Part shown: positions 1,287-51,615 of the stretch, one piece after another | How the letters are laid out: the number at the start of each line of letters is the position of its first letter | Numbering within the stretch: position 1 is the first letter of the stretch | Source of the DNA: a virus | Length of the DNA: 53,693 bases | Reading direction: 5' to 3' (one strand) | Virus genome (UHGV): UHGV-0129084 | Notes under the pieces: generated by a model | What the model saw: only the letters and a program-made list of their open reading frames with translations | What the model was told of the DNA's origin: nothing | Database searches by the model: none | Position numbers and translations under genes: made by a program

Positions 1287-1541
1287 TCATTTCGATTGAT
1301 TATTTTCTCGACCATGTAGTTGAACATTCAAGGCAAACACCTCGTTAATCAACTCACCTAAAAGCTGTTCAACAAGTTCGCGATGCTCCCCAAGATGCAA
1401 GCACTTAATTGCCCATTCGTACAAGTTGAAAGCCTGCTCGCGATCTTTCATCATTTCACGGGCCTGGGCCAGAAAATCGCTCTCTACGAGCGCAACGACA
1501 TTAGTCGGGTATGACATGTTGGTTTCCTTAAAGTGGTTCAT
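1287..1541 (-). CDS. Hypothetical protein (84 aa)
   Basis: Intact ORF in the same orientation as neighbours; no recognisable motif. Confidence 0.35.
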   Translation of the reverse strand: MNHFKETNMSYPTNVVALVESDFLAQAREMMKDREQAFNLYEWAIKCLHLGEHRELVEQLLGELINEVFALNVQLHGRENNQSK

Positions 1542-1623
1542 AAAATCGATTTTAAAGCGTCTGGGAAGGGGTTCTAGTGGATTCTGTAGTGATGTTCAGG
1601 TCTGGAGTCTCTGATACAAAGCT

Positions 1624-1680
1624 GCCTGCTTCCGTATATTAATAATTAATATGTAGTTATTTATATATACAGAAGCAGGC
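1624..1680. repeat. Inverted-repeat element (16-bp arms, 25-bp AT-rich spacer), copy 1
   Basis: GCCTGCTTCCGTATAT ... ATATACAGAAGCAGGC. Confidence 0.6.
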
Positions 1681-1702
1681 TAATTACAGACGCCAGAACA
1701 AA

Positions 1703-2296
1703 CTAAGCAGCCTTCTTTGATGGTCTTTTTTTCCTGATCACATTCGCAGGATCATACCCTCCCAGACTTTTCATGACGTCCAAAGGGATCTTGCTTATAG
1801 AGTGCCCAGCGTCCTGACAGAATCCTCGAAAAACAACGAGCATACTGCCACCTGGGTTGATGTTTACTTCTACCTGACCCAGATTTACGTCAGGCTCGAC
1901 AAACGCTACGCGGCCACCAGACAGAATAATCGTCTCATTCGCACACTCTGTTGCACGCTCATACCACTTTGTATCTAGGGATTGAGGAATTAGCATCACT
2001 GTTGTAACTCCGCGAGCCTGCTCACGTATAGCCGCATCAATCCAGGGGTAGATTTTGGAGTAGGGTGGATTGAGGAAGGCAATTGTACCTGGCTGTCCCC
2101 ATTCAGATTTCAAAGCATCACGCTCAACGCCTATGAAATTAGGCAGCTTTGCATTGTCCTTGTTGCAGGCAACGTCAACATCAAATGTCACTCCAAGATA
2201 ACGTTGAATGGCAGAAAACAGCCAGTCAGGTGTTCTCCAGAGGTCACGAAGAGAGTTGTCGCGCTTTCGCTGTTTGATTTTTTCGGCTGCAATCAT
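1703..2296 (-). CDS. DNA N6-adenine methyltransferase (phage Dam-like)
   Basis: 197 aa; catalytic NPPY motif (FLNPPYS) of amino-MTases; small size typical of phage orphan Dam enzymes. Confidence 0.7.
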   Translation of the reverse strand: MIAAEKIKQRKRDNSLRDLWRTPDWLFSAIQRYLGVTFDVDVACNKDNAKLPNFIGVERDALKSEWGQPGTIAFLNPPYSKIYPWIDAAIREQARGVTTVMLIPQSLDTKWYERATECANETIILSGGRVAFVEPDVNLGQVEVNINPGGSMLVVFRGFCQDAGHSISKIPLDVMKSLGGYDPANVIRKKRPSKKAA

Positions 2297-3289: not shown

Positions 3290-3410
3290 GTAAGTCTCCT
3301 TCTGTTTGGTTACATTTGCGTTTCGATGGCTGCATTTTGACTAAACCTATCAGGCGGAAAAGTATTAAATACAGGCAGGAAATGATTGAAAGGCGACTGT
3401 TCTTTAAAAA

Positions 3411-3445
3411 AAAAGCCTACTTTAAACTTTTTAAAGTAGGCTTTT
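3411..3445. terminator. Bidirectional rho-independent terminator
   Basis: 16-bp stem AAAAGCCTACTTTAAA / TTTAAAGTAGGCTTTT with 3-nt loop, A-run upstream and T-run downstream. Confidence 0.65.
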
Positions 3446-3448
3446 GTT

Positions 3449-4496: not shown

Positions 4497-5141
4497 CTAA
4501 TGAACGGTCACTCGGCCACAGAACCGGTTTTCTATCTTTTCTACAGCGTTATCTAGCATTCTCATCACTGATCTGGCTCTTGCTTCAACCGTGCGATATC
4601 GGTTGGAAACGACGAAGGTTTGCAGATCTCCCCTTTGCGGATGCAGGTGAATTTTTGTCAGTTCCCCGCACATCAACGCATCAATACGAGCGACATACAG
4701 ACGGTCTAATGATGCTCGTTGTGATCGCAAGTAATCTCGCTCTGAGAGAGCGACTCCCGGGCGTAAGCCAGCAATGGCGTTAAAGTTTGAAATAGCAGTT
4801 TTGTGGCAAAACTTTTCGATATCGAGGGCTAACTCAATACACCGATCTTCATTTGTATGGCCGACCAAATCCAACGTGTAGGCCATAACATCAGCAGGTG
4901 TGCGATCGATAACAAAGCCTTCAACACCACGCGTAAGTAGCTCTATATGCTTTGCTATTTCCATTTGAATCTGAAGCCGCTCATATAGAGGCATAGAATC
5001 ACCTACTCGAACACCGAGGCGGCTCATCAAACTTCCGACACCAGCATCCACGTAAGGGATTCCGTAATGTTTGTCGATATATTTAGCCAGGGTTGTTTTC
5101 CCACTGCCCTGAGCACCAGTGATCCCAATCCGGTAATCCAT
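4497..5141 (-). CDS. P-loop nucleotide kinase-like protein (possible dNMP kinase)
   Basis: N-terminal Walker A GITGAQGSGKTTLA; 214 aa; start overlaps DHFR stop (ATGA at 5141). Confidence 0.5.
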   Translation of the reverse strand: MDYRIGITGAQGSGKTTLAKYIDKHYGIPYVDAGVGSLMSRLGVRVGDSMPLYERLQIQMEIAKHIELLTRGVEGFVIDRTPADVMAYTLDLVGHTNEDRCIELALDIEKFCHKTAISNFNAIAGLRPGVALSERDYLRSQRASLDRLYVARIDALMCGELTKIHLHPQRGDLQTFVVSNRYRTVEARARSVMRMLDNAVEKIENRFCGRVTVH

Positions 5142-13210: not shown

Positions 13211-15116
13211 AGCTGCGCCCCTCTTTAACTTCCAGCGTAATAGTTTCCCGGAACCATGACTTCATCTCTTTATGGGAGATAATCAGCACAGTACCTCGCT
13301 CGCGAGCTTTGGACTCCAGAATACCCATGAGGCGTTCAAGACCGGCTGTATCGAGTGCATCGTCAATTTCGTCGCCGATAAACAAATCGATGTTTTTACT
13401 CGCCCGGTTACTAACCAGATCCTGCAATGCCAAAGAACACGCAATGCGAACCTTCCGCTTCTCACCACCAGAGAGGGTCTGGAACGACTTACTTGAACCT
13501 TTCTTCTGCACACTAATGTTGAATTTGTCGCGATACTCACCTTTTTTAGTGACATCCATCGTCGACCACTCAGCAGTAATATTCCCGTCAGACAACGTAT
13601 TGAGATACTCGGCAGTGCGTGTATTCAGGAAAGGCGTAACAGACGTCAAAATATGAGAACGCACCCCGGCAGGAGAGTAGACCTGACGAGCTTTTTCCAA
13701 TAGCAACGTTTGTTCCTGAATAGCCTTCAACTCATCTTTTAAGGACTTGAAGGTAGACTTACTGGATACCAAGTTATCTTCGTGTCTGGCGATAAGAGCA
13801 ATAAACGGATTAATCTCTTTTGATATACGATCGACCTCAGTACGAGCACGAGTCACAAGAGACTCAATAGCAACAACCTCCTTCTCACGATGACGCAAAG
13901 ATGAGAGTTGTTTCGTAAGCTCTTCAATCCGGGCAATGATAGCCGTTACATCAGGTGTCGTTTTAACAAGGGCAGACTCAATGCTTAACGCTTTCTCAAG
14001 ATTCGTTTTGTGTTTAGCCATTGCCTCTGCAAGTGTCTTCGCCTGACCAATTTCCTGACGTGCTTGTTCAATGAAACTCTCCTTCACCGTTGATAGATCT
14101 TCTTCGCAGTAGGCTTTGCCACAAGTAGGGCATGGTGATCCCACTTTAGTACCAACCTCTTCTGCTTTGGTCTTAAAATTACGCGCGCGGTTCATTGCAT
14201 CAGCCTGACTATTTTCTGTAGCTTTGATGCTTGCCCGAATATCAGTTATCGCACCACGAACTTTGAGCAACTTGGCGTCATGTTCTTCTTTTGAGGCTAA
14301 CTTTTTGCGCTCACTTTCGATTGCCTTCTCGGTATCACGTATCTGTTCGGGAAGAGTGCGGATCTCAAGTTCAACTTCCGTTAACTCAACTTCGGCACTG
14401 GCCAGCCCAGCCAGGGCATCGTCATAACGTTTAGAACGCTCTTGCTCCCATGATTCAGAGGAGGCTTTCGCTGACTCAATTTCTGACTGTGTTGCCTCAA
14501 TGGTCGAGATTGTCGACTCCAATTTGGTTTTAACCACATCCATACGTGCGGCAGCTGCATTAGCTCGCTCACGAGCAATAGCGTAGGCGCGTGTCAGTCT
14601 GTCAACGCCAGCGGCTTCTTCTACGATGGTTTTGAGGTTTTTGTCGGACATTCCAGGTAAATCTGGCATAGCTTCTTGGCTCGCATAGATGGAAGCCATG
14701 AAAACCTCTTTAGATGCACCGATCAGACGCTCGACGAACTCCTGCGTCAGCGCATCTTTGCCTTTCGTCATATCGCCATCTTCACCACGAACGATAAGAC
14801 GATTTTTGAACTCTTTGTGTTTACGGTGACGAATGATTGCGTATCTCTTGCCTTCATCCTCGATGGTTACTGCAACACGACAGTTCTTTTCATGGTCGGT
14901 AGACAACACATCGTCACCCTTCACACCATGAGCTGTTTCGCCATAAAGACACCACATCAGGCTATTCATTAGAGTTGACTTTCCAGAGCCATTACTTGAT
15001 GCGGAACTATCATCACTATTAACACCCTGAATAAGCACTAAACCACGCTGATCTAACTCGACCTCCGCGCTGGCGATAGCCATAAAATTCTCAACCTGGA
15101 GCTTTAAAAACTTCAT
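13200..15116 (-). CDS. SbcC/Rad50-like ATPase (T4 gp46-like recombination nuclease subunit)
   Basis: 638 aa; Walker A SNGSGKST, long central coiled coil, ABC signature LSGGEKRKVRIA, Walker B LFIGDEIDDALD. Confidence 0.8.
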   Translation of the reverse strand: MKFLKLQVENFMAIASAEVELDQRGLVLIQGVNSDDSSASSNGSGKSTLMNSLMWCLYGETAHGVKGDDVLSTDHEKNCRVAVTIEDEGKRYAIIRHRKHKEFKNRLIVRGEDGDMTKGKDALTQEFVERLIGASKEVFMASIYASQEAMPDLPGMSDKNLKTIVEEAAGVDRLTRAYAIARERANAAAARMDVVKTKLESTISTIEATQSEIESAKASSESWEQERSKRYDDALAGLASAEVELTEVELEIRTLPEQIRDTEKAIESERKKLASKEEHDAKLLKVRGAITDIRASIKATENSQADAMNRARNFKTKAEEVGTKVGSPCPTCGKAYCEEDLSTVKESFIEQARQEIGQAKTLAEAMAKHKTNLEKALSIESALVKTTPDVTAIIARIEELTKQLSSLRHREKEVVAIESLVTRARTEVDRISKEINPFIALIARHEDNLVSSKSTFKSLKDELKAIQEQTLLLEKARQVYSPAGVRSHILTSVTPFLNTRTAEYLNTLSDGNITAEWSTMDVTKKGEYRDKFNISVQKKGSSKSFQTLSGGEKRKVRIACSLALQDLVSNRASKNIDLFIGDEIDDALDTAGLERLMGILESKARERGTVLIISHKEMKSWFRETITLEVKEGRSYVV

Positions 15117-16431: not shown

Positions 16432-16685
16432 GTGTTTTTCCTTTGTGGTTATTTTGATACAAATTCTAAGAGCAATGAGGAGGTAAACAACTATGCATAA
16501 CGGTATGTTAGGAATGAAACGAGCGCCTTAATATACAAAATTTATAAGTAAGTATATACCTATTTATCGTGGCGCAACTTTGCTTGTCTGTATGACTAAA
16601 AATAAGACAGGATCACTGTAGAACGCTATGAGAGCTATTTTGAGGGGGCGTAGATTCTATCTACGCCAATATACGATCTGGAGGG

Positions 16686-20125: not shown

Positions 20126-20301
20126 GCTGCCACCTCTTTGATTACATCAAATGCTGAATTAAATACGAGCACGATAGCCAAAGCGTTTATGACTACGTCG
20201 TGCACCGGGGAAAAGACTTTACGAATGACACCAGTGAAAATGCAGTCGATGACAAAAGCTATTGAAACGATGAGTAACAAGTATTCAATAAAAATCTTCA
20301 T
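20122..20301 (-). CDS. Small hydrophobic membrane protein (59 aa), not in the supplied ORF track
   Basis: Hand-translated MKIFIEYLLLIVSIAFVIDCIFTGVIRKVFSPVHDVVINALAIVLVFNSAFDVIKEVAA; below the 60-aa track cutoff; translationally coupled to the downstream secreted protein. Confidence 0.35.
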   Translation of the reverse strand: MKIFIEYLLLIVSIAFVIDCIFTGVIRKVFSPVHDVVINALAIVLVFNSAFDVIKEVAA

Positions 20302-20340
20302 GATAGGTAGATACTAACTTATATAAACTTTACTGTAAAC

Positions 20341-22223: not shown

Positions 22224-22291
22224 GTGTTTTCCTATGTGGTTGTTATGCGAAAATAATAAGTAAGTACTTATATATTTTCAAGAGATAAAAA

Positions 22292-25691: not shown

Positions 25692-25808
25692 GTGTTTCTC
25701 CTTGTTGTGATTTGGCCGATGGCGCTATGCGCGTTGGGCTTTCGTTCATTCGTGGCTCTTTCGAGCTGTTAAATGATAGATCAGTACTTACTTATTATCT
25801 ATCAAAAA

Positions 25809-38482: not shown

Positions 38483-39260
38483 AATTCAGCACTGCCAGTA
38501 TTTATTACTCAACAGTGCCAATCGCGACGGTTTAGTTTCTGCCAGGAAACGCACCGCTACTTGCACTTTTCGTTAGTGCCAGACGCTTTCGACTTCGCTC
38601 AATAGTAGAAGGCAAAATCTTTAAGTAGATGATGTTTCTGAGGACAGCACCTACTTTGTAATTTATACAATGTGATGTATGGAATCATTTGTTGTGAAAA
38701 CAGGCACCAATGGCAACAGTGGTTAAACCTACACAACAATCCTGTCTTCACAACGTTGAGGCCACTACTCCGATTGAATGTTTGCCCAACATGTTACATA
38801 TCAACGCTCGCCGGTATCTCTGTGAATAGAACCTTAGAATTGATAAAAATGTAATGGCCTCAACGTTGTGTGCTGGCTAACCATACCAGCCGGGCTACGT
38901 CGCCGCTTTTTAACCCAGTATAAACGACATAATTGAACAAAATGACGTAACAGGATGGGCGGTCAGTGGCTAAGAATCCGGGAGTCATATGGAGTTGAAA
39001 ATATACCAACCGCCCATTCTGTTACTTCATCGGAGGGAACATTCATGTTCCCTCCTGCGTTCTGCAATCACACTCGCTCAGTGTGTCCCATTTCGGTAAC
39101 GAGGCTGGAAACTGACCTCGCTGGTGTTTGGCTTATTAGGCTACTGCCAGATAGACTTCTTCGTTTGCACTTGTATTTAAGTTCAAACAGTCGCGTCTCA
39201 ACGAAAACAAAGTCATCTTATACATAAAAGATAAGTAAGTAAATACTTATCATTGTATTT

Positions 39261-43886: not shown

Positions 43887-45227
43887 TTAGGTAACGTCTA
43901 AGATTCGCTCAATGAAGCGCATTTGTTCGAGGTTTTGTTTAACGCGAATGCTGATCCCTCCCTGCTGGTTACGTGAACCAGCAAAGTAGAGACGAGCCTC
44001 TCCTTTCGCTTCTTCTTCTTCGGTTTTGTTGATCGTTATTACCAGGTCAGCAATACGTACTTTTTCGATGTTGTCGGCAGCGTGCATCATTGTGGCAACT
44101 TCTGACGCGCCACCTTCACGGTTTGTCTGCGATGCCGTGATCCCAGCAACGTTATGCTTGTCATAAAGAGCACGTAAATCGGTGTAGATACTACGAATGT
44201 TGGCGCGATCATCACGAAGGTCATAACTGGCACGCATCAAATCTGCGTAGTCGACAACAACCATGTCAGGCACCATGCCATTGGCTTTCATACTGTTAAG
44301 CATACGGTCCAGATCTGCCGGTGACATACTTCCTGACGGACGCTCAACAACCCACAAACTACCAATCCCCTTCGTGGCTCCCAACTCTGCCAACTTACGA
44401 TGAACCTCATCGCGCCGTTCCACCAGCTTGGACATTTCCGTCTCCGACAATCTTGCATCAAAACGGTCGGATAAAATGGTGGTGTGAACCTCCAGCGAGA
44501 GATACAGAACATTGTAGCCAGCAAGCGTTGCGTTTATGGAAAACTCACCCATTGCGGTCGATTTACCGGATTTAGCGAACCCCATGAAGAGCACCATTTC
44601 GCGCTTTGCCCAGCCTTTTTGGTACAGCAACCTATCGAGAAGAGGGAGTCCAGTTGTAATACTGTTTGGTACATACTCCTCTGAAGCCTCATATTCACGC
44701 GCTTTCAATCGCTCACTTGCGGAGGTGTAGTAGTCATAGATTCCGGTCGCTTCGTTCGATCCAATCTGCTGAACCTTGGCCATGATTGCCATCGCCCCCT
44801 GAAAGTCGCCTTTCTCTTTCAGTTCAGCAGCCTTAATCAGAGCATCATCAAACGCTACACTTTTTGCGAAGGTTGATACCTGGTCAACCATGTACGAGGT
44901 ATCAGACAATTTTTCTGCAAGGATGCGCTTAAACGCAGCAACAACATCGGCGAATAGTTCCTCACGGATAGTCTTATCGCGTTTCGCACGCTTAAGCATA
45001 TCCAGAATCGCAGATGAAGAGGGCGCGCTCTTGTACATACGGTAATAGCCCGAAACCATATTAACCAATATGGCATTGGCCGCATTGGCAAATTGGCCAG
45101 GTACAACCAGATCTCCAGCACGAGTAAGAAACTCGTGATCACGACAAAAATATGCCGTCAGTCTGTTCTGGAAATCTTCATCAAACTCTTCGGACAGCCC
45201 GCGTCCTGTATGGCAAAGTTCGGTCAT
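43887..45227 (-). CDS. DnaB-like replicative helicase
   Basis: 446 aa; C-terminal RecA-like domain with Walker A GFAKSGKST and Walker B-like VVVDYADLM. Confidence 0.75.
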   Translation of the reverse strand: MTELCHTGRGLSEEFDEDFQNRLTAYFCRDHEFLTRAGDLVVPGQFANAANAILVNMVSGYYRMYKSAPSSSAILDMLKRAKRDKTIREELFADVVAAFKRILAEKLSDTSYMVDQVSTFAKSVAFDDALIKAAELKEKGDFQGAMAIMAKVQQIGSNEATGIYDYYTSASERLKAREYEASEEYVPNSITTGLPLLDRLLYQKGWAKREMVLFMGFAKSGKSTAMGEFSINATLAGYNVLYLSLEVHTTILSDRFDARLSETEMSKLVERRDEVHRKLAELGATKGIGSLWVVERPSGSMSPADLDRMLNSMKANGMVPDMVVVDYADLMRASYDLRDDRANIRSIYTDLRALYDKHNVAGITASQTNREGGASEVATMMHAADNIEKVRIADLVITINKTEEEEAKGEARLYFAGSRNQQGGISIRVKQNLEQMRFIERILDVT

Positions 45228-45270: not shown

Positions 45271-46020
45271 TTAATTAGATAGGGGATCAATAAACCGCCG
45301 TGCTTCTTCCAGTTCTTCTGGAAAGTGGGCGGAAATAAGGCGCTCTGGAACGATTTCCATTAACCAGATAGCGGAGAAAATTGCGCGTATGCGCTTGCTG
45401 CGGGGGATGGTGCGTAAACGCTCCAGAATCCACCCAAAATAGCTTTCCTGAATCGGGTTGAACTGCATGTCTCCCATATGCTTAAAGCTAACGAGAGAGT
45501 CATCCAGACGGGTTGTTGCGCGTCTGGCTAATTTCTCTTCGAATATCTCAATCAGCTCTGGCTGCCATAAATGCTGTGGGCGCGGCAGCTTGTCCCACAG
45601 CCGTCGTGCAGCTGCGGAAAGAACGGTGGAGATAAAGTAGTCGTATGAGCAGCAATAGCGATCCGCAAACTGGCGTGCTTTCCATAGCGACGTTTTGTTG
45701 GCAGTCGACAACTCCTGATAAGGCAGACGTTTTAACCCGGTGGTGAACGGAGCTGTTTCAAAGTGTTCGCGACCGTGCGTCAGCATGATATTTGAGTACT
45801 GACGTTTGTATGCCTCCGTAAAAAGACAGGTGGCCATGAGAGGATGCATGTCGCGGTAATCAAACCACTTCGTCTCGAAGAGTTCAGCCTCGTCTTTACA
45901 GCGCGACAAACCAATGTTTTCAGCAACCCACTTGTCCATAACAGCGGTATTCCACTCTGTCATGAAGTCGTACTGGTTGTTGTCGATGGTATCGAAAAAG
46001 ATTTGGCTCATGTGGCTCAC
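45271..46020 (-). CDS. Hypothetical protein (249 aa)
   Basis: First gene of the helicase-primase run; no P-loop, so not a DnaC-type loader. Confidence 0.4.
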   Translation of the reverse strand: MSHMSQIFFDTIDNNQYDFMTEWNTAVMDKWVAENIGLSRCKDEAELFETKWFDYRDMHPLMATCLFTEAYKRQYSNIMLTHGREHFETAPFTTGLKRLPYQELSTANKTSLWKARQFADRYCCSYDYFISTVLSAAARRLWDKLPRPQHLWQPELIEIFEEKLARRATTRLDDSLVSFKHMGDMQFNPIQESYFGWILERLRTIPRSKRIRAIFSAIWLMEIVPERLISAHFPEELEEARRFIDPLSN

Positions 46021-46127
46021 CTGGTAGGTTGTTACTTACTTATCACGATGAGCGGATGATAGCGACTGGTGGCAGTTTTTGGAAGTGTAAACGGAAGGGA
46101 ATGTATCTGGGAAGTCAGCAGAGAAAA

Positions 46128-46185
46128 GACCTGCTTCCGTATAAATAATAATAAGTAACTTAATATTTATATACAGAAGCAGGTC
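46128..46185. repeat. Inverted-repeat element (16-bp arms, 26-bp AT-rich spacer), copy 2
   Basis: GACCTGCTTCCGTATA ... TATACAGAAGCAGGTC; shares core and the same single arm mismatch with the element at 1624-1680. Confidence 0.6.
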
Positions 46186-46383
46186 AAAAACCAACCCAAC
46201 CTAGTTTTTAGTCTCATGGTAGGCAACCTTAAGATCTACTTCAAAACAGCTGCACGCCAGACGGTTGCAACATTGTTAAGTGTAACAAATTATTGTAGAT
46301 TACTCAGACACAGAATAGCGTCTACAACTTAAGAAACGTCCAGAAATAAACAATGTACCAATCACGTAGAAAGGGAATTAAGA

Positions 46384-47061
46384 ATGAAGGCGAATAAGTC
46401 AGCGGCACTTTTAGTTTTATTATTAGCCGGTTGCGCGCAACAAAGTAACCCACAACAAAATGCCACTGTAAAACCAATCCTAACCCAAGAAATATTGCCT
46501 TCCTCTAACGTAGAGTCAAAGGCGAAAATGGGTGACCTTGTCGTTTATAACACGTTTGTGTCCACGTTAAAAACCGACATGGTCACTCTTGGTAACGCTT
46601 CTGGTTCGATGTCTGAGATTAAAGCGGGCAACTACTGCCACGTTGGTGGTGGGGTCTACCGGAACTTTGAAGACTCAAAAGCTGTTGGCCTGAAGGCCAT
46701 TACAGGGCAGGTAGTGAGCCACACTGATAACGTCAAGTATGACAAGGTCAAAAACACTATATCTCCTCCCAACACTACGACGTTCGACGCCTCTGAAATA
46801 TCCATAAAATTCGCACAAAATGTCCCCTGCCATGTAGAGAAAAAGATTGTTCAGTCTATTTCTTATAATGGCAAAAGTGGCGACGACCTTAAATTTATTT
46901 ATTCCGAAAGCTACCCAAGTTTAGATGAAACTAAGACTGAGTTTTCAGTGCCTCTTTCCGATGCAAAAACCAAAGTCGAATATAAAAACCTGGCATTCAA
47001 GGTTATTGAAATGGAGGGTACTACAATCCGCTACTATGTATTACCATCTGGCAATAAATAA
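46384..47061 (+). CDS. Lipoprotein (225 aa)
   Basis: Signal peptide with lipobox MKANKSAALLVLLLAGC; plus-strand gene in a minus-strand context; AAGGGA RBS upstream. Confidence 0.6.
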   Translation: MKANKSAALLVLLLAGCAQQSNPQQNATVKPILTQEILPSSNVESKAKMGDLVVYNTFVSTLKTDMVTLGNASGSMSEIKAGNYCHVGGGVYRNFEDSKAVGLKAITGQVVSHTDNVKYDKVKNTISPPNTTTFDASEISIKFAQNVPCHVEKKIVQSISYNGKSGDDLKFIYSESYPSLDETKTEFSVPLSDAKTKVEYKNLAFKVIEMEGTTIRYYVLPSGNK

Positions 47062-47076
47062 ACTGCTTTAAAATAT

Positions 47077-47094
47077 AGGCGCCATCTGGCGCCT
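47077..47094. terminator. Bidirectional rho-independent terminator between convergent genes
   Basis: AGGCGCC-ATCT-GGCGCCT hairpin flanked by A/T runs on both sides. Confidence 0.6.
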
Positions 47095-47099
47095 TATTC

Positions 47100-47459
47100 T
47101 TAACTCTTCTTCATTAACTCGCGTTTAATTTCATCGGTACGCATCGTGACATCGGCAGCAGTGATCGCCTCGTTCAGCTTCACGATGTCCTCGATTTCCT
47201 GCGGTGTCTTCTCCGCAAGATGGAAAATAGCAGCACGAATCACGTCAGAACGAGTGAACTTCTCGAAGCGAGGGATGAACTTCATCATCTCCAGCAGTTC
47301 GAAGTATTCGTCCTCCAGTGACATTGTGCGGCTTTTAATTTTCTCTTTGCCACGAGTCGGGCGTCCCTGTGGTCTGACTGGTTGGCGCAAAGGAGTTGTG
47401 TTCTTAGCCGGTGCATCAGGCTCTTTGCGCTTTGCTAGGTCACCCATTTTCATGGACAT
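47100..47459 (-). CDS. Small partition protein (ParB/ParG-like adaptor)
   Basis: 119 aa; basic N-terminal tail, predicted ribbon-helix-helix-like C-terminal region; start overlaps the parA stop. Confidence 0.45.
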   Translation of the reverse strand: MSMKMGDLAKRKEPDAPAKNTTPLRQPVRPQGRPTRGKEKIKSRTMSLEDEYFELLEMMKFIPRFEKFTRSDVIRAAIFHLAEKTPQEIEDIVKLNEAITAADVTMRTDEIKRELMKKS

Positions 47460-48127
47460 TATTCTTCTTCCTCCAGACTCAACAGATAATCTACAAATTC
47501 TTCAAACTCGGCTTCCGCCTTTTTGTCGCGCTCGCTACCGGTCATTTCAAAGATAGAGCGACCAGACTCTTCCGCATCATCATAGACGTTGCGGTTATAT
47601 AGATTGACTGGCGCAGACTCGATTCCAAACGTCTCAACAATCTCTTTAGCCGCCAGAATGCGAGACACTTGTGATGGCAAAGCCGGGCACTGGTTCATGA
47701 CCGCGCGGACCTTCACTTTATCGTTTACATTGCGAACATTGTCGATAATAGGATCGATGTCACGTAAAGATTTCAAATCACGACGCTTAGGACGCAGCGG
47801 GATAATGATAACGTCAGCCATCAGCATCGCTTGTCGCTGAATTTCGGAGTCGAAGCCACCAGCATCTACCACTACAAACTCAGCTCTACCCTGAAGCGAT
47901 TTTAGGTGCTTAATGATGTCATCCTGAACGTATGCAAAAGGAATCAGCTCAAGGTCTTCGTTCTGTCGACGGTCTTCACACCAGCTCGTTGTCGTGCGCT
48001 GAATATCTATATCGGTAATATAAACCTTCTTCTTCTTTTTGACTTTCAGGCAAACGGCAATTTGCTGGGCAACGGTGGATTTGCCAGGCCCGCCCTTTGT
48101 GCCGCCAACCACAAAGATCTTGGTCAT
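47459..48127 (-). CDS. parA: ParA-type partition ATPase (small type Ib)
   Basis: 222 aa; deviant Walker A GGTKGGPGKST. Confidence 0.8.
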   Translation of the reverse strand: MTKIFVVGGTKGGPGKSTVAQQIAVCLKVKKKKKVYITDIDIQRTTTSWCEDRRQNEDLELIPFAYVQDDIIKHLKSLQGRAEFVVVDAGGFDSEIQRQAMLMADVIIIPLRPKRRDLKSLRDIDPIIDNVRNVNDKVKVRAVMNQCPALPSQVSRILAAKEIVETFGIESAPVNLYNRNVYDDAEESGRSIFEMTGSERDKKAEAEFEEFVDYLLSLEEEE

Positions 48128-50707: not shown

Positions 50708-50769
50708 GAAAAGTCAAATCGGGATGGCGGTTTTATATCATAAAACGCCCACACTTGGTAGGTAAGTAC

Positions 50770-51615
50770 TTACACATGAGCGCCGTAAATTGCCCCAGCT
50801 TTAGTCCAAGTTGGAGCATTACCGGTAACAGCTTTACCAGCTGCGCCACCTCCGTACAATGTCCCCACTCGTCCAGTTGCAGCGGCACCAGCAGCCCCCA
50901 CATTACCTCCACTACCGCATGTATATTGGACAGCATTAGAGCCGATCACATATTGAGCGCCAATCCCGGCAGCGGTTAGAGTGCCAGAAGTTGCCGCCCG
51001 CGAATTTGAAGCTGGTGGCCTTGTAGTGTTTGCAACACCAAACGGGCGACCGCCCCCACCCATACCACCATCGAGTGAGCTACCGCCACCGCCACCGCCA
51101 CCGCCGGCAATAGCGCCATTATTGGTTATTCTTAAACGGGTCCCAATTCCGTTGTTAATAGCAGTGCCACCGGCAGCACCGCCACCTTTAACGCCACCAT
51201 TACCGCCACGGCCATAGACAGTTACACCTGCGTTGATTACCAGGCTGATATAAGAGTTGGTAAGCGAACTTGGGAAATCTAAACATGGCACGCCGCTACT
51301 GGACGACACCAGATCCCCTGTAATGGTAACAACGACTGGCGTCGCCCCCTGGGATTTTAAATAGTTGATCAGTGTGTCTTTGTTGTAGTTATGATTCGCA
51401 CCGATGCTGTACTGAACTTCTTTAGATCGCCCGGCCATTTGAGACATTGAACCAGCCGCTGGCAGTTGCACCGCCGTTCGAGCCGCACTCATCCATCTCT
51501 GGCCTGTCACACTGACAGCCGAAGACCCAATCCAACCGGGAACACCGACAATTGGCACATCTAATCTCCTTTTTGATGTGAATATCCTGAATTGGTGAGG
51601 GTGGCCCCTCACCAT
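50770..51615 (-). CDS. Glycine-rich tail-fibre-associated protein (gp38-like adhesin, speculative)
   Basis: 281 aa; poly-Gly tracts (GGGGGGGGSSLDGGMGGGGRP) separated by short segments; immediately downstream of the tail fibre gene. Confidence 0.45.
   Translation of the reverse strand: MVRGHPHQFRIFTSKRRLDVPIVGVPGWIGSSAVSVTGQRWMSAARTAVQLPAAGSMSQMAGRSKEVQYSIGANHNYNKDTLINYLKSQGATPVVVTITGDLVSSSSGVPCLDFPSSLTNSYISLVINAGVTVYGRGGNGGVKGGGAAGGTAINNGIGTRLRITNNGAIAGGGGGGGGSSLDGGMGGGGRPFGVANTTRPPASNSRAATSGTLTAAGIGAQYVIGSNAVQYTCGSGGNVGAAGAAATGRVGTLYGGGAAGKAVTGNAPTWTKAGAIYGAHV

Follow-up and report, generated by a model that had tools for sequence, protein, structure and literature searches.

A long hairpin element repeated at three fixed intergenic junctions of SSU5-like phage-plasmids, a candidate transcription terminator

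The 53,693-nucleotide stretch of virus genome UHGV-0129084 analyzed here (the window) represents about half of an Escherichia coli SSU5-like phage-plasmid and contains two closely related inverted repeats, at positions 1624–1680 and 46128–46185. Both were identified as members of a set of three paralogous copies, designated P1, P2 and P3, which occupy fixed positions across the SSU5-like family; P1 and P2 are the two copies in the window. The interpretation we favor, with a confidence somewhat better than even, is that the copies are RNA hairpins acting as intrinsic terminators or insulators between plasmid-mode or early operons and lytic modules, that they are nested in a longer repeat, and that they are kept alike by gene conversion.

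Two Related Inverted Repeats in the Window

An inverted-repeat search placed the arms of the first element at 1624–1639 and 1665–1680 (16 nt, 94% complementary, 25 nt apart) and those of the second at 46128–46143 and 46170–46185 (16 nt, 94% complementary, 26 nt apart). The first reads GCCTGCTTCCGTATAT ... ATATACAGAAGCAGGC and the second GACCTGCTTCCGTATA ... TATACAGAAGCAGGTC. Both carry an identical mismatch at arm position 9, where a C of the left arm faces an A of the right arm on the plus strand. A preliminary description of the window had reported two related repeats with 16-nt arms, AT-rich spacers of 25–26 nt and one common arm mismatch; the sequence and the search confirmed each of these features, as well as the placement of the first element between two minus-strand genes and of the second in a divergent intergenic region, which follows from the gene coordinates.

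The spacers are AT-rich and unlike in sequence (27 and 26 nt between the 14-nt cores), as had been described. The accompanying hint at promoter-like text was not upheld: a sigma-70 scan detected no promoter on the transcribed strand within either element, and the spacer pairs as the upper part of a hairpin. Both spacers are themselves imperfect palindromes (in the second element a separate internal inverted repeat was detected), so that each element constitutes a near-palindrome of about 57 nt.

With up to two mismatches allowed, the window contains five occurrences of the 14-nt core CCTGCTTCCGTATA, where chance predicts 0.22; a count of five was not attained in any of 100 shuffles. Four of the five are the four arms. 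A search with an nhmmer profile built from many instances revealed no further copy within the window.

A Three-Copy Family Private to SSU5-like Phage-Plasmids

The window is 98–99% identical to 'Escherichia phage CMS-2020a' and to Cyrano (pLF82), and about 77–82% identical to Salmonella phage SSU5; its P2 is 100% identical to the corresponding site of E. coli WEM25 plasmid p1 (NZ_CP061531.1, 108,197 bp). The profile search yielded exactly three copies each in SSU5 and Cyrano, at syntenic places. P1 follows a methyltransferase gene (Cyrano 78082–78140, SSU5 78302–78362), P2 precedes a module encoding a 249-aa protein, a helicase and a primase (Cyrano 31157–31213, SSU5 33456–33515), and P3 (Cyrano 108340–19) lies about 115 nt before terS, which it separates from a ParB/ABC-type operon whose ParB genes are located 2 kb upstream. 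Since WEM25 p1 also carries P3 before terS, the replicon of the window has a third copy outside the window.

Positions were determined in two samples. A pattern scan of IMG/VR gave at least 120 loci, and among the matches listed all pattern-found instances (121 of 121) mapped to P1, P2 or P3 by BLAST of their flanks. The second sample was drawn through neighboring proteins, blind to the palindrome, and included 78 P2 loci; in it the element was present at P2 and P3 in 152 of 152 loci and at P1 in 70 of 78. Altogether, about 270 IMG/VR loci fall at these places and nowhere else. The copies thus sit at three syntenic junctions. Their common origin or selection, rather than coincidence, which the preliminary description had proposed, is borne out by these family-wide positions, and the strong positional pattern is not that of a generic terminator family scattered without regard to position, the outcome which that description had set against its own proposal.

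Among 5426 complete E. coli genomes, the P2 cassette was found at 186 places in 185 genomes, all plasmid-borne and none chromosomal. The full palindrome was detected in only 7 stretches among 185,579 species, one genome each; most of these are contigs of about 58–108 kb, two are shorter (29.6 and 11.8 kb), and they come from Kluyvera, Buttiauxella, a 'Y. pestis' contig and one metagenome-assembled genome (MAG). Related phage-plasmids were also found in Klebsiella, Salmonella and Enterobacter, among others. The element is private to SSU5-like phage-plasmids, and its restriction to the family, its three syntenic sites and its plasmid-only occurrence in E. coli mean that it is neither a host repeat nor a freely mobile element.

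The following origins were rejected. A host interspersed repeat (REP/BIME, ERIC) or a miniature inverted-repeat transposable element is contradicted by the lack of chromosomal copies in E. coli, the 7 stretches among 185,579 species and the three fixed sites. The two copies in the window, 44.5 kb apart, are not attL and attR of an integrated prophage, as the prophage is a circular plasmid, a third copy exists and every relative has the sites in synteny. Nor do they represent a terminal redundancy or a duplication introduced by assembly, because the flanks of the two copies are unrelated.

No Rfam family matched either site at the gathering score, and the sub-threshold matches at both sites were only to hairpin models resembling miRNA precursors. 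A literature text search for either arm sequence found no paper containing one among those searchable. The 29.6-kb contig JAEWTL010000044.1, which holds the exact palindrome, is labelled 'MAG: Bacillota bacterium' and is probably a mis-binned fragment of an enterobacterial phage-plasmid.

Acinetobacter relatives carry AT-rich palindromes of their own at analogous places, one of them following repM. On A. baumannii plasmid NZ_CP107600.1 they were located at about 29810–29865 and 30300–30330 of locus L500 and at about 14900–14955 of locus L501, before the terS region and between repM and the helicase module. Their arms read CGAATAAT.../...ATTATTCG and their centers AATAAGTGCTTACTT and AATAAGCGCTTATT; repeated CCG-N4-TTGGGT motifs lie beside them.

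Hairpin Structure and Terminator Features

Nearly all genes of the window are on the minus strand, which is the transcribed direction. In Cyrano and SSU5, each copy begins 22–23 nt past a co-directional stop codon and ends 107–116 nt before the next start. The minus-strand sequence of the P1 inner palindrome (1624–1680) is GCCTGCTTCTGTATAT...ATATACGGAAGCAGGC with an AT-rich interior, and in it the C/A mismatch at arm position 9 becomes a U.G pair; the P2 inner palindrome (46128–46185, minus strand) has a center, TAAGTAACTTA, that is itself palindromic. Folding of the minus-strand RNA gave −26.3 kcal/mol (z −4.3) for P1 and −29.3 kcal/mol (z −5.9) for P2. The fold is a continuous 16-bp stem with the base CCUGCUUC/GAAGCAGG, topped by an AU-rich helix.

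Several features of intrinsic terminators were found. The hairpin on the transcribed strand is stable and G+C-rich, and it stands at the 3' end of a co-directional gene at the three Cyrano/SSU5 sites and at P1 of the window. Directly after the P2 stem, a T-rich tract (46116–46127, minus strand) follows ...GCAGGTC with TTTTCTCTGCTG; TTTTCTCT adjoins the window copy, and TCTTTT(T/A) occurs in nearly all of the 78 P2 loci sampled. Most P1 orthologues have the tail CTGTTTTGTATC or CTTTTTAAGAC (CTGTTTTG or CTTTTTA). P3 has no T-tract in the SSU5/E. coli clade and a strong one in the Klebsiella pB-KP1118-1 clade (KP1118 clade). A scan of the whole Cyrano genome ranked P1 and P2 as the most stable hairpins followed by a T-tract (−27.2 and −27.4 kcal/mol).

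Two further structures were noted near the copies. In the window, positions 1617–1631 can pair with 1705–1719 (15 nt, 80%), that is, the last methyltransferase codons AAGGCTGCTT with the P1 3' arm plus its tail; this could be a competitor of the terminator stem or a coincidence. Beyond the limits of the window, directly before the terS start, stands another hairpin of conventional type, GAGCGCATGGACGCGCTC with TGTGTGTTTTAGAGGG after it (locus L522, about 4790–4815, minus strand, corresponding to Cyrano 95–116); it is highly conserved and overlaps the terS ribosome-binding region. The presence of two tandem hairpins before the late operon suggests control by read-through.

The Outer Inverted Repeat

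The hairpin is enclosed by a longer repeat. At P1, the 5' outer arm UGUUCUGGCGUCUG (1687–1700, minus strand) begins 2 nt past the methyltransferase stop codon and pairs with the CAGAGACUCCAGAC region at 1593–1604 (minus strand). In the fold of the 125 nt at 1588–1712 (minus strand, −39.6 kcal/mol, z −4.9), this outer helix encloses the inner hairpin. The nesting of a hairpin in a longer repeat completed by read-through, as in the sib element of phage lambda, was thus found in the P1 fold.

In relatives, both P1 and P3 have these outer arms, GTCTGGGAG/CTCCCAGAC. A CCCAGAC block is located 17–20 nt past the palindrome in all three paralogues, and at P1 and P3 it pairs with GTCTGGG(AG) just past the upstream stop codon. 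The consensus structure of 36 P3 orthologues also contained the outer helix, with two covarying pairs. At P2 the outer left arm is usually missing because the upstream flank is variable cargo. As the 3' outer arm lies beyond the T-tract, only transcripts that have read through can form the outer helix.

Evolution of the Arms

In the close family, 95.5% of the arm cells are paired. Changes on both sides were observed at 3 of the 14 arm pairs, a value reached by 25 of 500 shuffles. Pairs 8 and 5 each occur as C-G, U.G and U-A (at pair 8, U-A in ten P1 loci), pair 9 as U.G, C-G and U-A, and pair 6 as U.C (eleven P1 loci) and G-C. In distant P1 copies, whose methyltransferase is 61–64% identical, the arms have a different sequence: at locus L365 they form the perfect palindrome GCCTTGCTCCCATA/TATGGGAGCAAGGC, and at locus L366 (GCCGTGTTCCCATA/TATCGGAGCACGGC) they are paired except for one U.G wobble and one C.C mismatch. 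Judging from these substitutions, pairing is clearly under selection. A single-arm 14-mer scan of IMG/VR for GCCTTGCTCCCATA gave chance matches only, and the paired pattern returned just the one P1 locus; megablast of L365 and L366 against plasmids gave no match.

Departures from Watson-Crick pairing at P2 and P3 almost always read G.U in the sense direction and would be C.A in the opposite one. The strand evidence favors an RNA hairpin, without being decisive.

The KP1118 clade, in which the 249-aa protein is 55% identical, has lost the left arm at P1 and at the P2-equivalent. A canonical terminator with a GC stem and a T-run lies 8–25 nt downstream of both remnants, while P3 of this clade has kept an imperfect hairpin and gained a long T-tract. 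The replacement by ordinary terminators at the same junctions is the best single argument for termination as the selected function of the hairpin.

Over about 45 nt, the P1 and P2 remnants of KP1118 are nearly the same, and across genomes the right-arm variants (GGAGCCAGGC vs. CCAGAGCA[A/C]GGC) co-vary between P1 and P3. Both observations indicate that the copies are homogenized by recombination. Alternatively or additionally, the right half may have a sequence-specific function.

Proposed Role

In the mechanism we infer, the inner palindrome would fold in the nascent RNA with a G+C-rich base of 14–16 bp, an AU-rich top and the apparent mismatch accommodated as G.U. The U-tract directly after P2 and most P1 hairpins would then lead to factor-independent termination. 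P2 would insulate the lytic replication module, P3 the late packaging and structural operon, and P1 the block past the methyltransferase gene, in each case from transcription of upstream operons, including plasmid-maintenance operons active in lysogeny. In RNA that has read through, the outer helix (GTCTGGGAG ... CTCCCAGAC) would create a longer duplex, plausibly a signal for RNase III, processing or regulation, although this part is speculative. The three copies would be kept alike through recombinational exchange (concerted evolution), and P2 would in addition be the fixed boundary of a hot spot of cargo genes.

Published expression data for E. coli LF82 bear on the proposed insulation. CYRAN_29 and CYRAN_30, the last Cyrano genes before P2, are expressed in lysogeny, and the list of expressed genes does not include the replication genes past P2 (PMC9928086). 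Together with the position of P3 between the ParB/ABC operon and terS, this expression pattern places the cassettes where maintenance and cargo transcription must not enter lytic modules.

A number of observations weigh against termination as a sufficient explanation. In the window, the tail after the P1 hairpin (1611–1623, minus strand, CAGCTTTGTATCA) contains only a weak T-tract, CAGCTTTG. At P3 of the SSU5/E. coli clade, where the T-tract is lacking, purine-A mismatches at pair 6 were found in two sub-lineages, and this copy is therefore no convincing intrinsic terminator alone. A hairpin of about 57 nt whose upper part is AU-rich is not typical of terminators; its apical loop is small only if the AU-rich interior pairs, and a consensus terminator scan (loop of 3–8 nt), which looks for compact stems, reported neither element. 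The gene adjoining P2 of the window on the upstream side is divergent, so the only transcription that the hairpin could halt at this copy would be read-through out of the ParA operon, which lies further upstream.

The evolutionary evidence also has its limits. Strand asymmetry is mixed at P1, where about 23 loci pair better on the antisense strand, and the sense bias, strong by locus counts, is a modest 9 to 5 or so when independent events are considered. The Cyrano scan revealed many ordinary short terminators as well, and termination alone thus leaves the shared sequence of the cassettes, interior included, unexplained. In KP1118, P1 and P2 have retained the right half although nothing is left for it to pair with, which hints at a sequence-specific role independent of the hairpin; this clade shows that termination is not the whole story. 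A second, sequence-specific role might lie in regulated read-through, RNase III processing or protein binding.

A more far-reaching version, to which we assign a low probability, is that the cassettes form a coordinated switch. During lysogeny the hairpins would stop or insulate transcription before all three modules; upon induction, a phage-encoded factor or an antiterminated polymerase would read through all of them, and the outer duplex would then be processed by an RNase III-type activity or bound. If so, the transition from plasmid to phage would be coupled to three identical RNA checkpoints, and the shared sequence, the concerted evolution and the lone right half would reflect recognition by that factor.

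SSU5-like phage-plasmids are common, as indicated by the 185 E. coli genomes with a P2 cassette, and their cargo includes resistance genes. The cassettes provide concrete, mutable targets for studying how about 100 kb of co-directional lytic genes are silenced beside expressed maintenance genes, and thereby how transcription is divided between the plasmid and phage modes. P2 also marks the exact edge of the cargo hot spot, which is useful for annotation, typing and engineering. Should the cassette be more than a terminator, it would represent a new regulatory device of phage-plasmids.

Alternative Explanations

Binding of a protein to duplex DNA was considered a rather unlikely alternative. 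The sites would be operators or centromere-like sequences for a phage-plasmid protein, for instance a dimeric regulator or either of the two ParB-like proteins with genes just upstream of P3, and their occupancy would silence or activate the lytic modules beside them. This would account for the fact that the paralogues share sequence and not structure alone, including the palindromic AT-rich center AATAAGTNACTTATT, and for lineage-specific right-half variants that the copies of one genome have in common and that KP1118 retains though the left arm is gone. Palindromes with a similar center (AATAAGTGCTTACTT, AATAAGCGCTTATT) at analogous places in Acinetobacter and the position of P3 2 kb downstream of the ParB genes are consistent with it as well. 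However, the compensatory arm changes and G.U-type substitutions suit a single-stranded hairpin better than a duplex, the palindromic center is lost in the KP1118 clade though the ParB homologues are kept, and gene conversion accounts for the concerted changes without a trans factor. The central motif TAAGTNACTTA was not enriched in the window, and the T-tracts, the place just past stop codons and the replacement by canonical terminators would be left unexplained.

About equally doubtful is a primary role in RNA processing, with RNase III cutting the nested duplex, or in antiterminator-regulated read-through, with one transcript crossing the three junctions in lytic growth. The inner stem and AU helix together amount to about 24–26 bp, to which the outer arms add about 10 bp only after read-through; the two covarying pairs in the P3 outer helix and the identity of the outer arms at P1 and P3 fit such a role. 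So do the almost wholly co-directional genome and the layout at P3, where a hairpin without a T-tract is followed by a second hairpin with one before terS, an arrangement typical of operons controlled by antitermination. Against this, many genomes lack the outer left arm at P2, and no match to an Rfam family rises to the threshold.

The possibility that the elements are promoters is very slight. Their TATA-rich interior would serve as a −10-type element for sigma-70 or a phage factor, and many copies do contain the T4-late-like TATAAATA, the interior showing TATAAATA/TTAAATA followed by TATAC and a G+C-rich box. P2 and P3 are located where module promoters are expected, and one clade keeps the right half without the left arm. 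Yet the sigma-70 scan gave no promoter on the transcribed strand of either element, no −35 element is evident, and covariation of the arms would not be expected of a promoter. In KP1118 a canonical terminator follows the remnant, so a transcript begun there would stop at once. At P2, a better promoter-like region with a conserved operator-like motif lies 60–100 nt further downstream; the leader conservation profile contains a weak promoter candidate, TTCCAA-17-TATCAT, about 60 nt downstream of the copy.

Least probable among these readings is a cruciform or hairpin of the DNA that would serve replication, recombination or else packaging, for instance as a lytic origin, as a point of entry for SbcCD/UvsX or as part of the packaging site. 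This reading can draw on an AT-rich center that favors extrusion, on P2 preceding helicase and primase genes as the analogous Acinetobacter palindrome follows repM, on P3 adjoining terS with the SSU5 and Cyrano records both linearized inside it, on phage-encoded SbcCD-, UvsX-, UvsY- and UvsW-like proteins and on P2 being a recombination boundary, but a packaging function would hardly be expected of three terminase or origin sites separated by 30–47 kb, the break in the records may stem from difficulty in assembling a hairpin or from the SSU5 start having been copied into the Cyrano record, no iterons or DnaA boxes were noted beside the enterobacterial copies, and the wobble substitutions, T-tracts and terminator replacement point to RNA. 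The two records concerned, NC_018843.1 (SSU5) and OV696614.1 (Cyrano), break a few bases to the right of the P3 center, and this may be a copied assembly break at the hairpin or a real DNA end next to terS. Searches of the literature found no virion-end data for these phages and nothing relevant on SSU5 terminators or palindromes or on packaging.

Comparison with Known Systems

The termination reading places the cassettes closest to intrinsic terminators. Shared features are the stable G+C-based hairpin just past a stop codon, the T-tract at P2 and most P1 copies, the compensatory pairing and the replacement by a textbook terminator at the same spot in one clade. The cassettes differ in their length of about 57 nt, the AU-rich top, the nesting, the three copies of the same sequence and a P3 without a T-tract; the ordinary terminators of the same genome are short, mutually unrelated and unlike the cassette.

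A second resemblance is to the promoter-early stem-loop (PeSL) cassettes of T4-type phages, which Arbiol et al. are said to have described in 2010 (Genome Biol Evol). They reportedly occur in many copies per genome and have a recognizable sigma-70 early promoter. Near-identical intergenic stem-loop cassettes repeated in one phage genome and a location at module boundaries are common to both, the repetition here amounting to three copies per genome. Variable neighbors, here upstream of P2, and recombination between copies, here seen as gene conversion in the KP1118 clade, may be further parallels. In contrast to PeSLs, the copies described here are limited to three, have fixed syntenic positions and contain no detectable promoter inside the palindrome, and mobility of flanking genes was seen at one side of P2 alone.

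The tI/sib region of phage lambda consists of a terminator hairpin within a longer inverted repeat, the outer helix of which requires read-through to form, and the intercistronic RNase III sites of T7 are long hairpins between genes of a co-directional phage genome. The cassettes share the nested hairpin with sib and the long intergenic hairpins of a co-directional genome with T7, cleavage being only a candidate activity here. They show no sequence similarity to either and stand before modules, not behind a single regulated gene.

The KorB OB sites of RK2 and the C1 operators of phage P1 are short (13–17 bp), contiguous duplex sites without T-tracts or compensatory evolution. The cassettes resemble them in that few to a dozen copies of one site are present at operon starts of a large replicon, with ParB-family genes nearby. 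However, 40 bp separate the conserved cassette arms, which have evolved in a way that suits a hairpin formed by a single strand.

Genes Around the Sites and Further Observations

The gene upstream of P1 on the transcribed strand encodes a Dam-type N6-adenine DNA methyltransferase (1703–2296, minus strand; Pfam PF05869, E 2.9e-38; PHROG 111; annotated as adenine methyltransferase in Cyrano), and its stop codon lies 22 nt upstream of the palindrome. The first gene 3' of P1 encodes a small protein of phrog_5343 (1287–1541, minus strand). As the family match begins at residue 9, its start is likely at about 1517, 106 nt past the palindrome.

The first gene 3' of P2 encodes the 249-aa protein of phrog_2500 (45271–46020, minus strand), with a likely start ATG at 46011, and is followed by a DnaB-like helicase gene (43887–45227, minus strand) and then a primase gene. 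A conservation profile of 56 unique orthologous P2 leaders, together with a motif search, defined a conserved leader between P2 and the 249-aa gene (46012–46115, minus strand) with a CCCAGA block, CCCTTCCGTTTACACTTCCAAAAAC, CCAGTCGCTAT, TAAGTAAGTA (46033–46042) and ACCTACCA (46022–46029). This leader is probably the module's own regulated promoter/operator region.

Upstream of P2, the interval 46186–47099 up to the ParA operon (47100–48127), the nearest co-directional operon, is a cargo hot spot. In the window it is occupied by a plus-strand gene for a 225-aa protein of phrog_1353 (46384–47061), whereas Cyrano carries a different gene on the minus strand (window orientation) and SSU5 and Klebsiella relatives a DUF2971 gene. 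In IMG/VR, over 20 different sequences border the upstream side of P2, each joining it right at the palindrome, and the downstream flank is conserved; the flanks of P1 and P3 are conserved on both sides. Pfam and PHROG scans of the genes flanking the sites revealed no candidate regulator or RNA-binding protein, and phrog_2500, 5343, 900 and 1353 lack an assigned function.

An ordinary terminator was noted after an epsilon-like exonuclease gene (about 3405–3446, minus strand), reading AAAGCCTACTTTAAA-aag-TTTAAAGTAGGCTTT with a T-run. Its Cyrano equivalent, AAGCCTGCTT...AAGCAGGCTT, has the same stem base as the palindromes. Between the window and Cyrano, whose genomes are 98% identical, this stem has undergone a compensated change from G-C to A-U.

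Three tRNA genes in a row (38239–38482, minus strand) gave Rfam tRNA scores of 75.5, 73.1 and 39.7 bits, the only matches above the gathering score in the window. The Cyrano annotation has a tRNA-Asn/Thr/Ser cluster that corresponds to them.

A second repeated intergenic motif, TAAGTAAGTA-N3-ACCTAYCA, with a partial or inverted form AGGTATATACTTAC[C/T]TAT, occurs 0–40 nt upstream of early gene and operon starts. TAAGTAAGTA with at most one mismatch gave 10 matches in the window against 2.6 expected. Sites were found on the minus strand at 46022–46042, 25764–25794, 20291–20321 and 80–110, as well as at about 50740–50770, and in reverse orientation at 2309–2318, 16545–16554, 22257–22266 and 39232–39245. 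The starts concerned include those of the 249-aa/helicase module and of the genes for a gp32-like single-stranded DNA-binding protein, the Dam methyltransferase and SbcD, among others, and the motif is conserved upstream of the 249-aa gene in Klebsiella relatives. Much as the scattered C1 operators of phage P1 do, it resembles a global regulator's operator or promoter motif.

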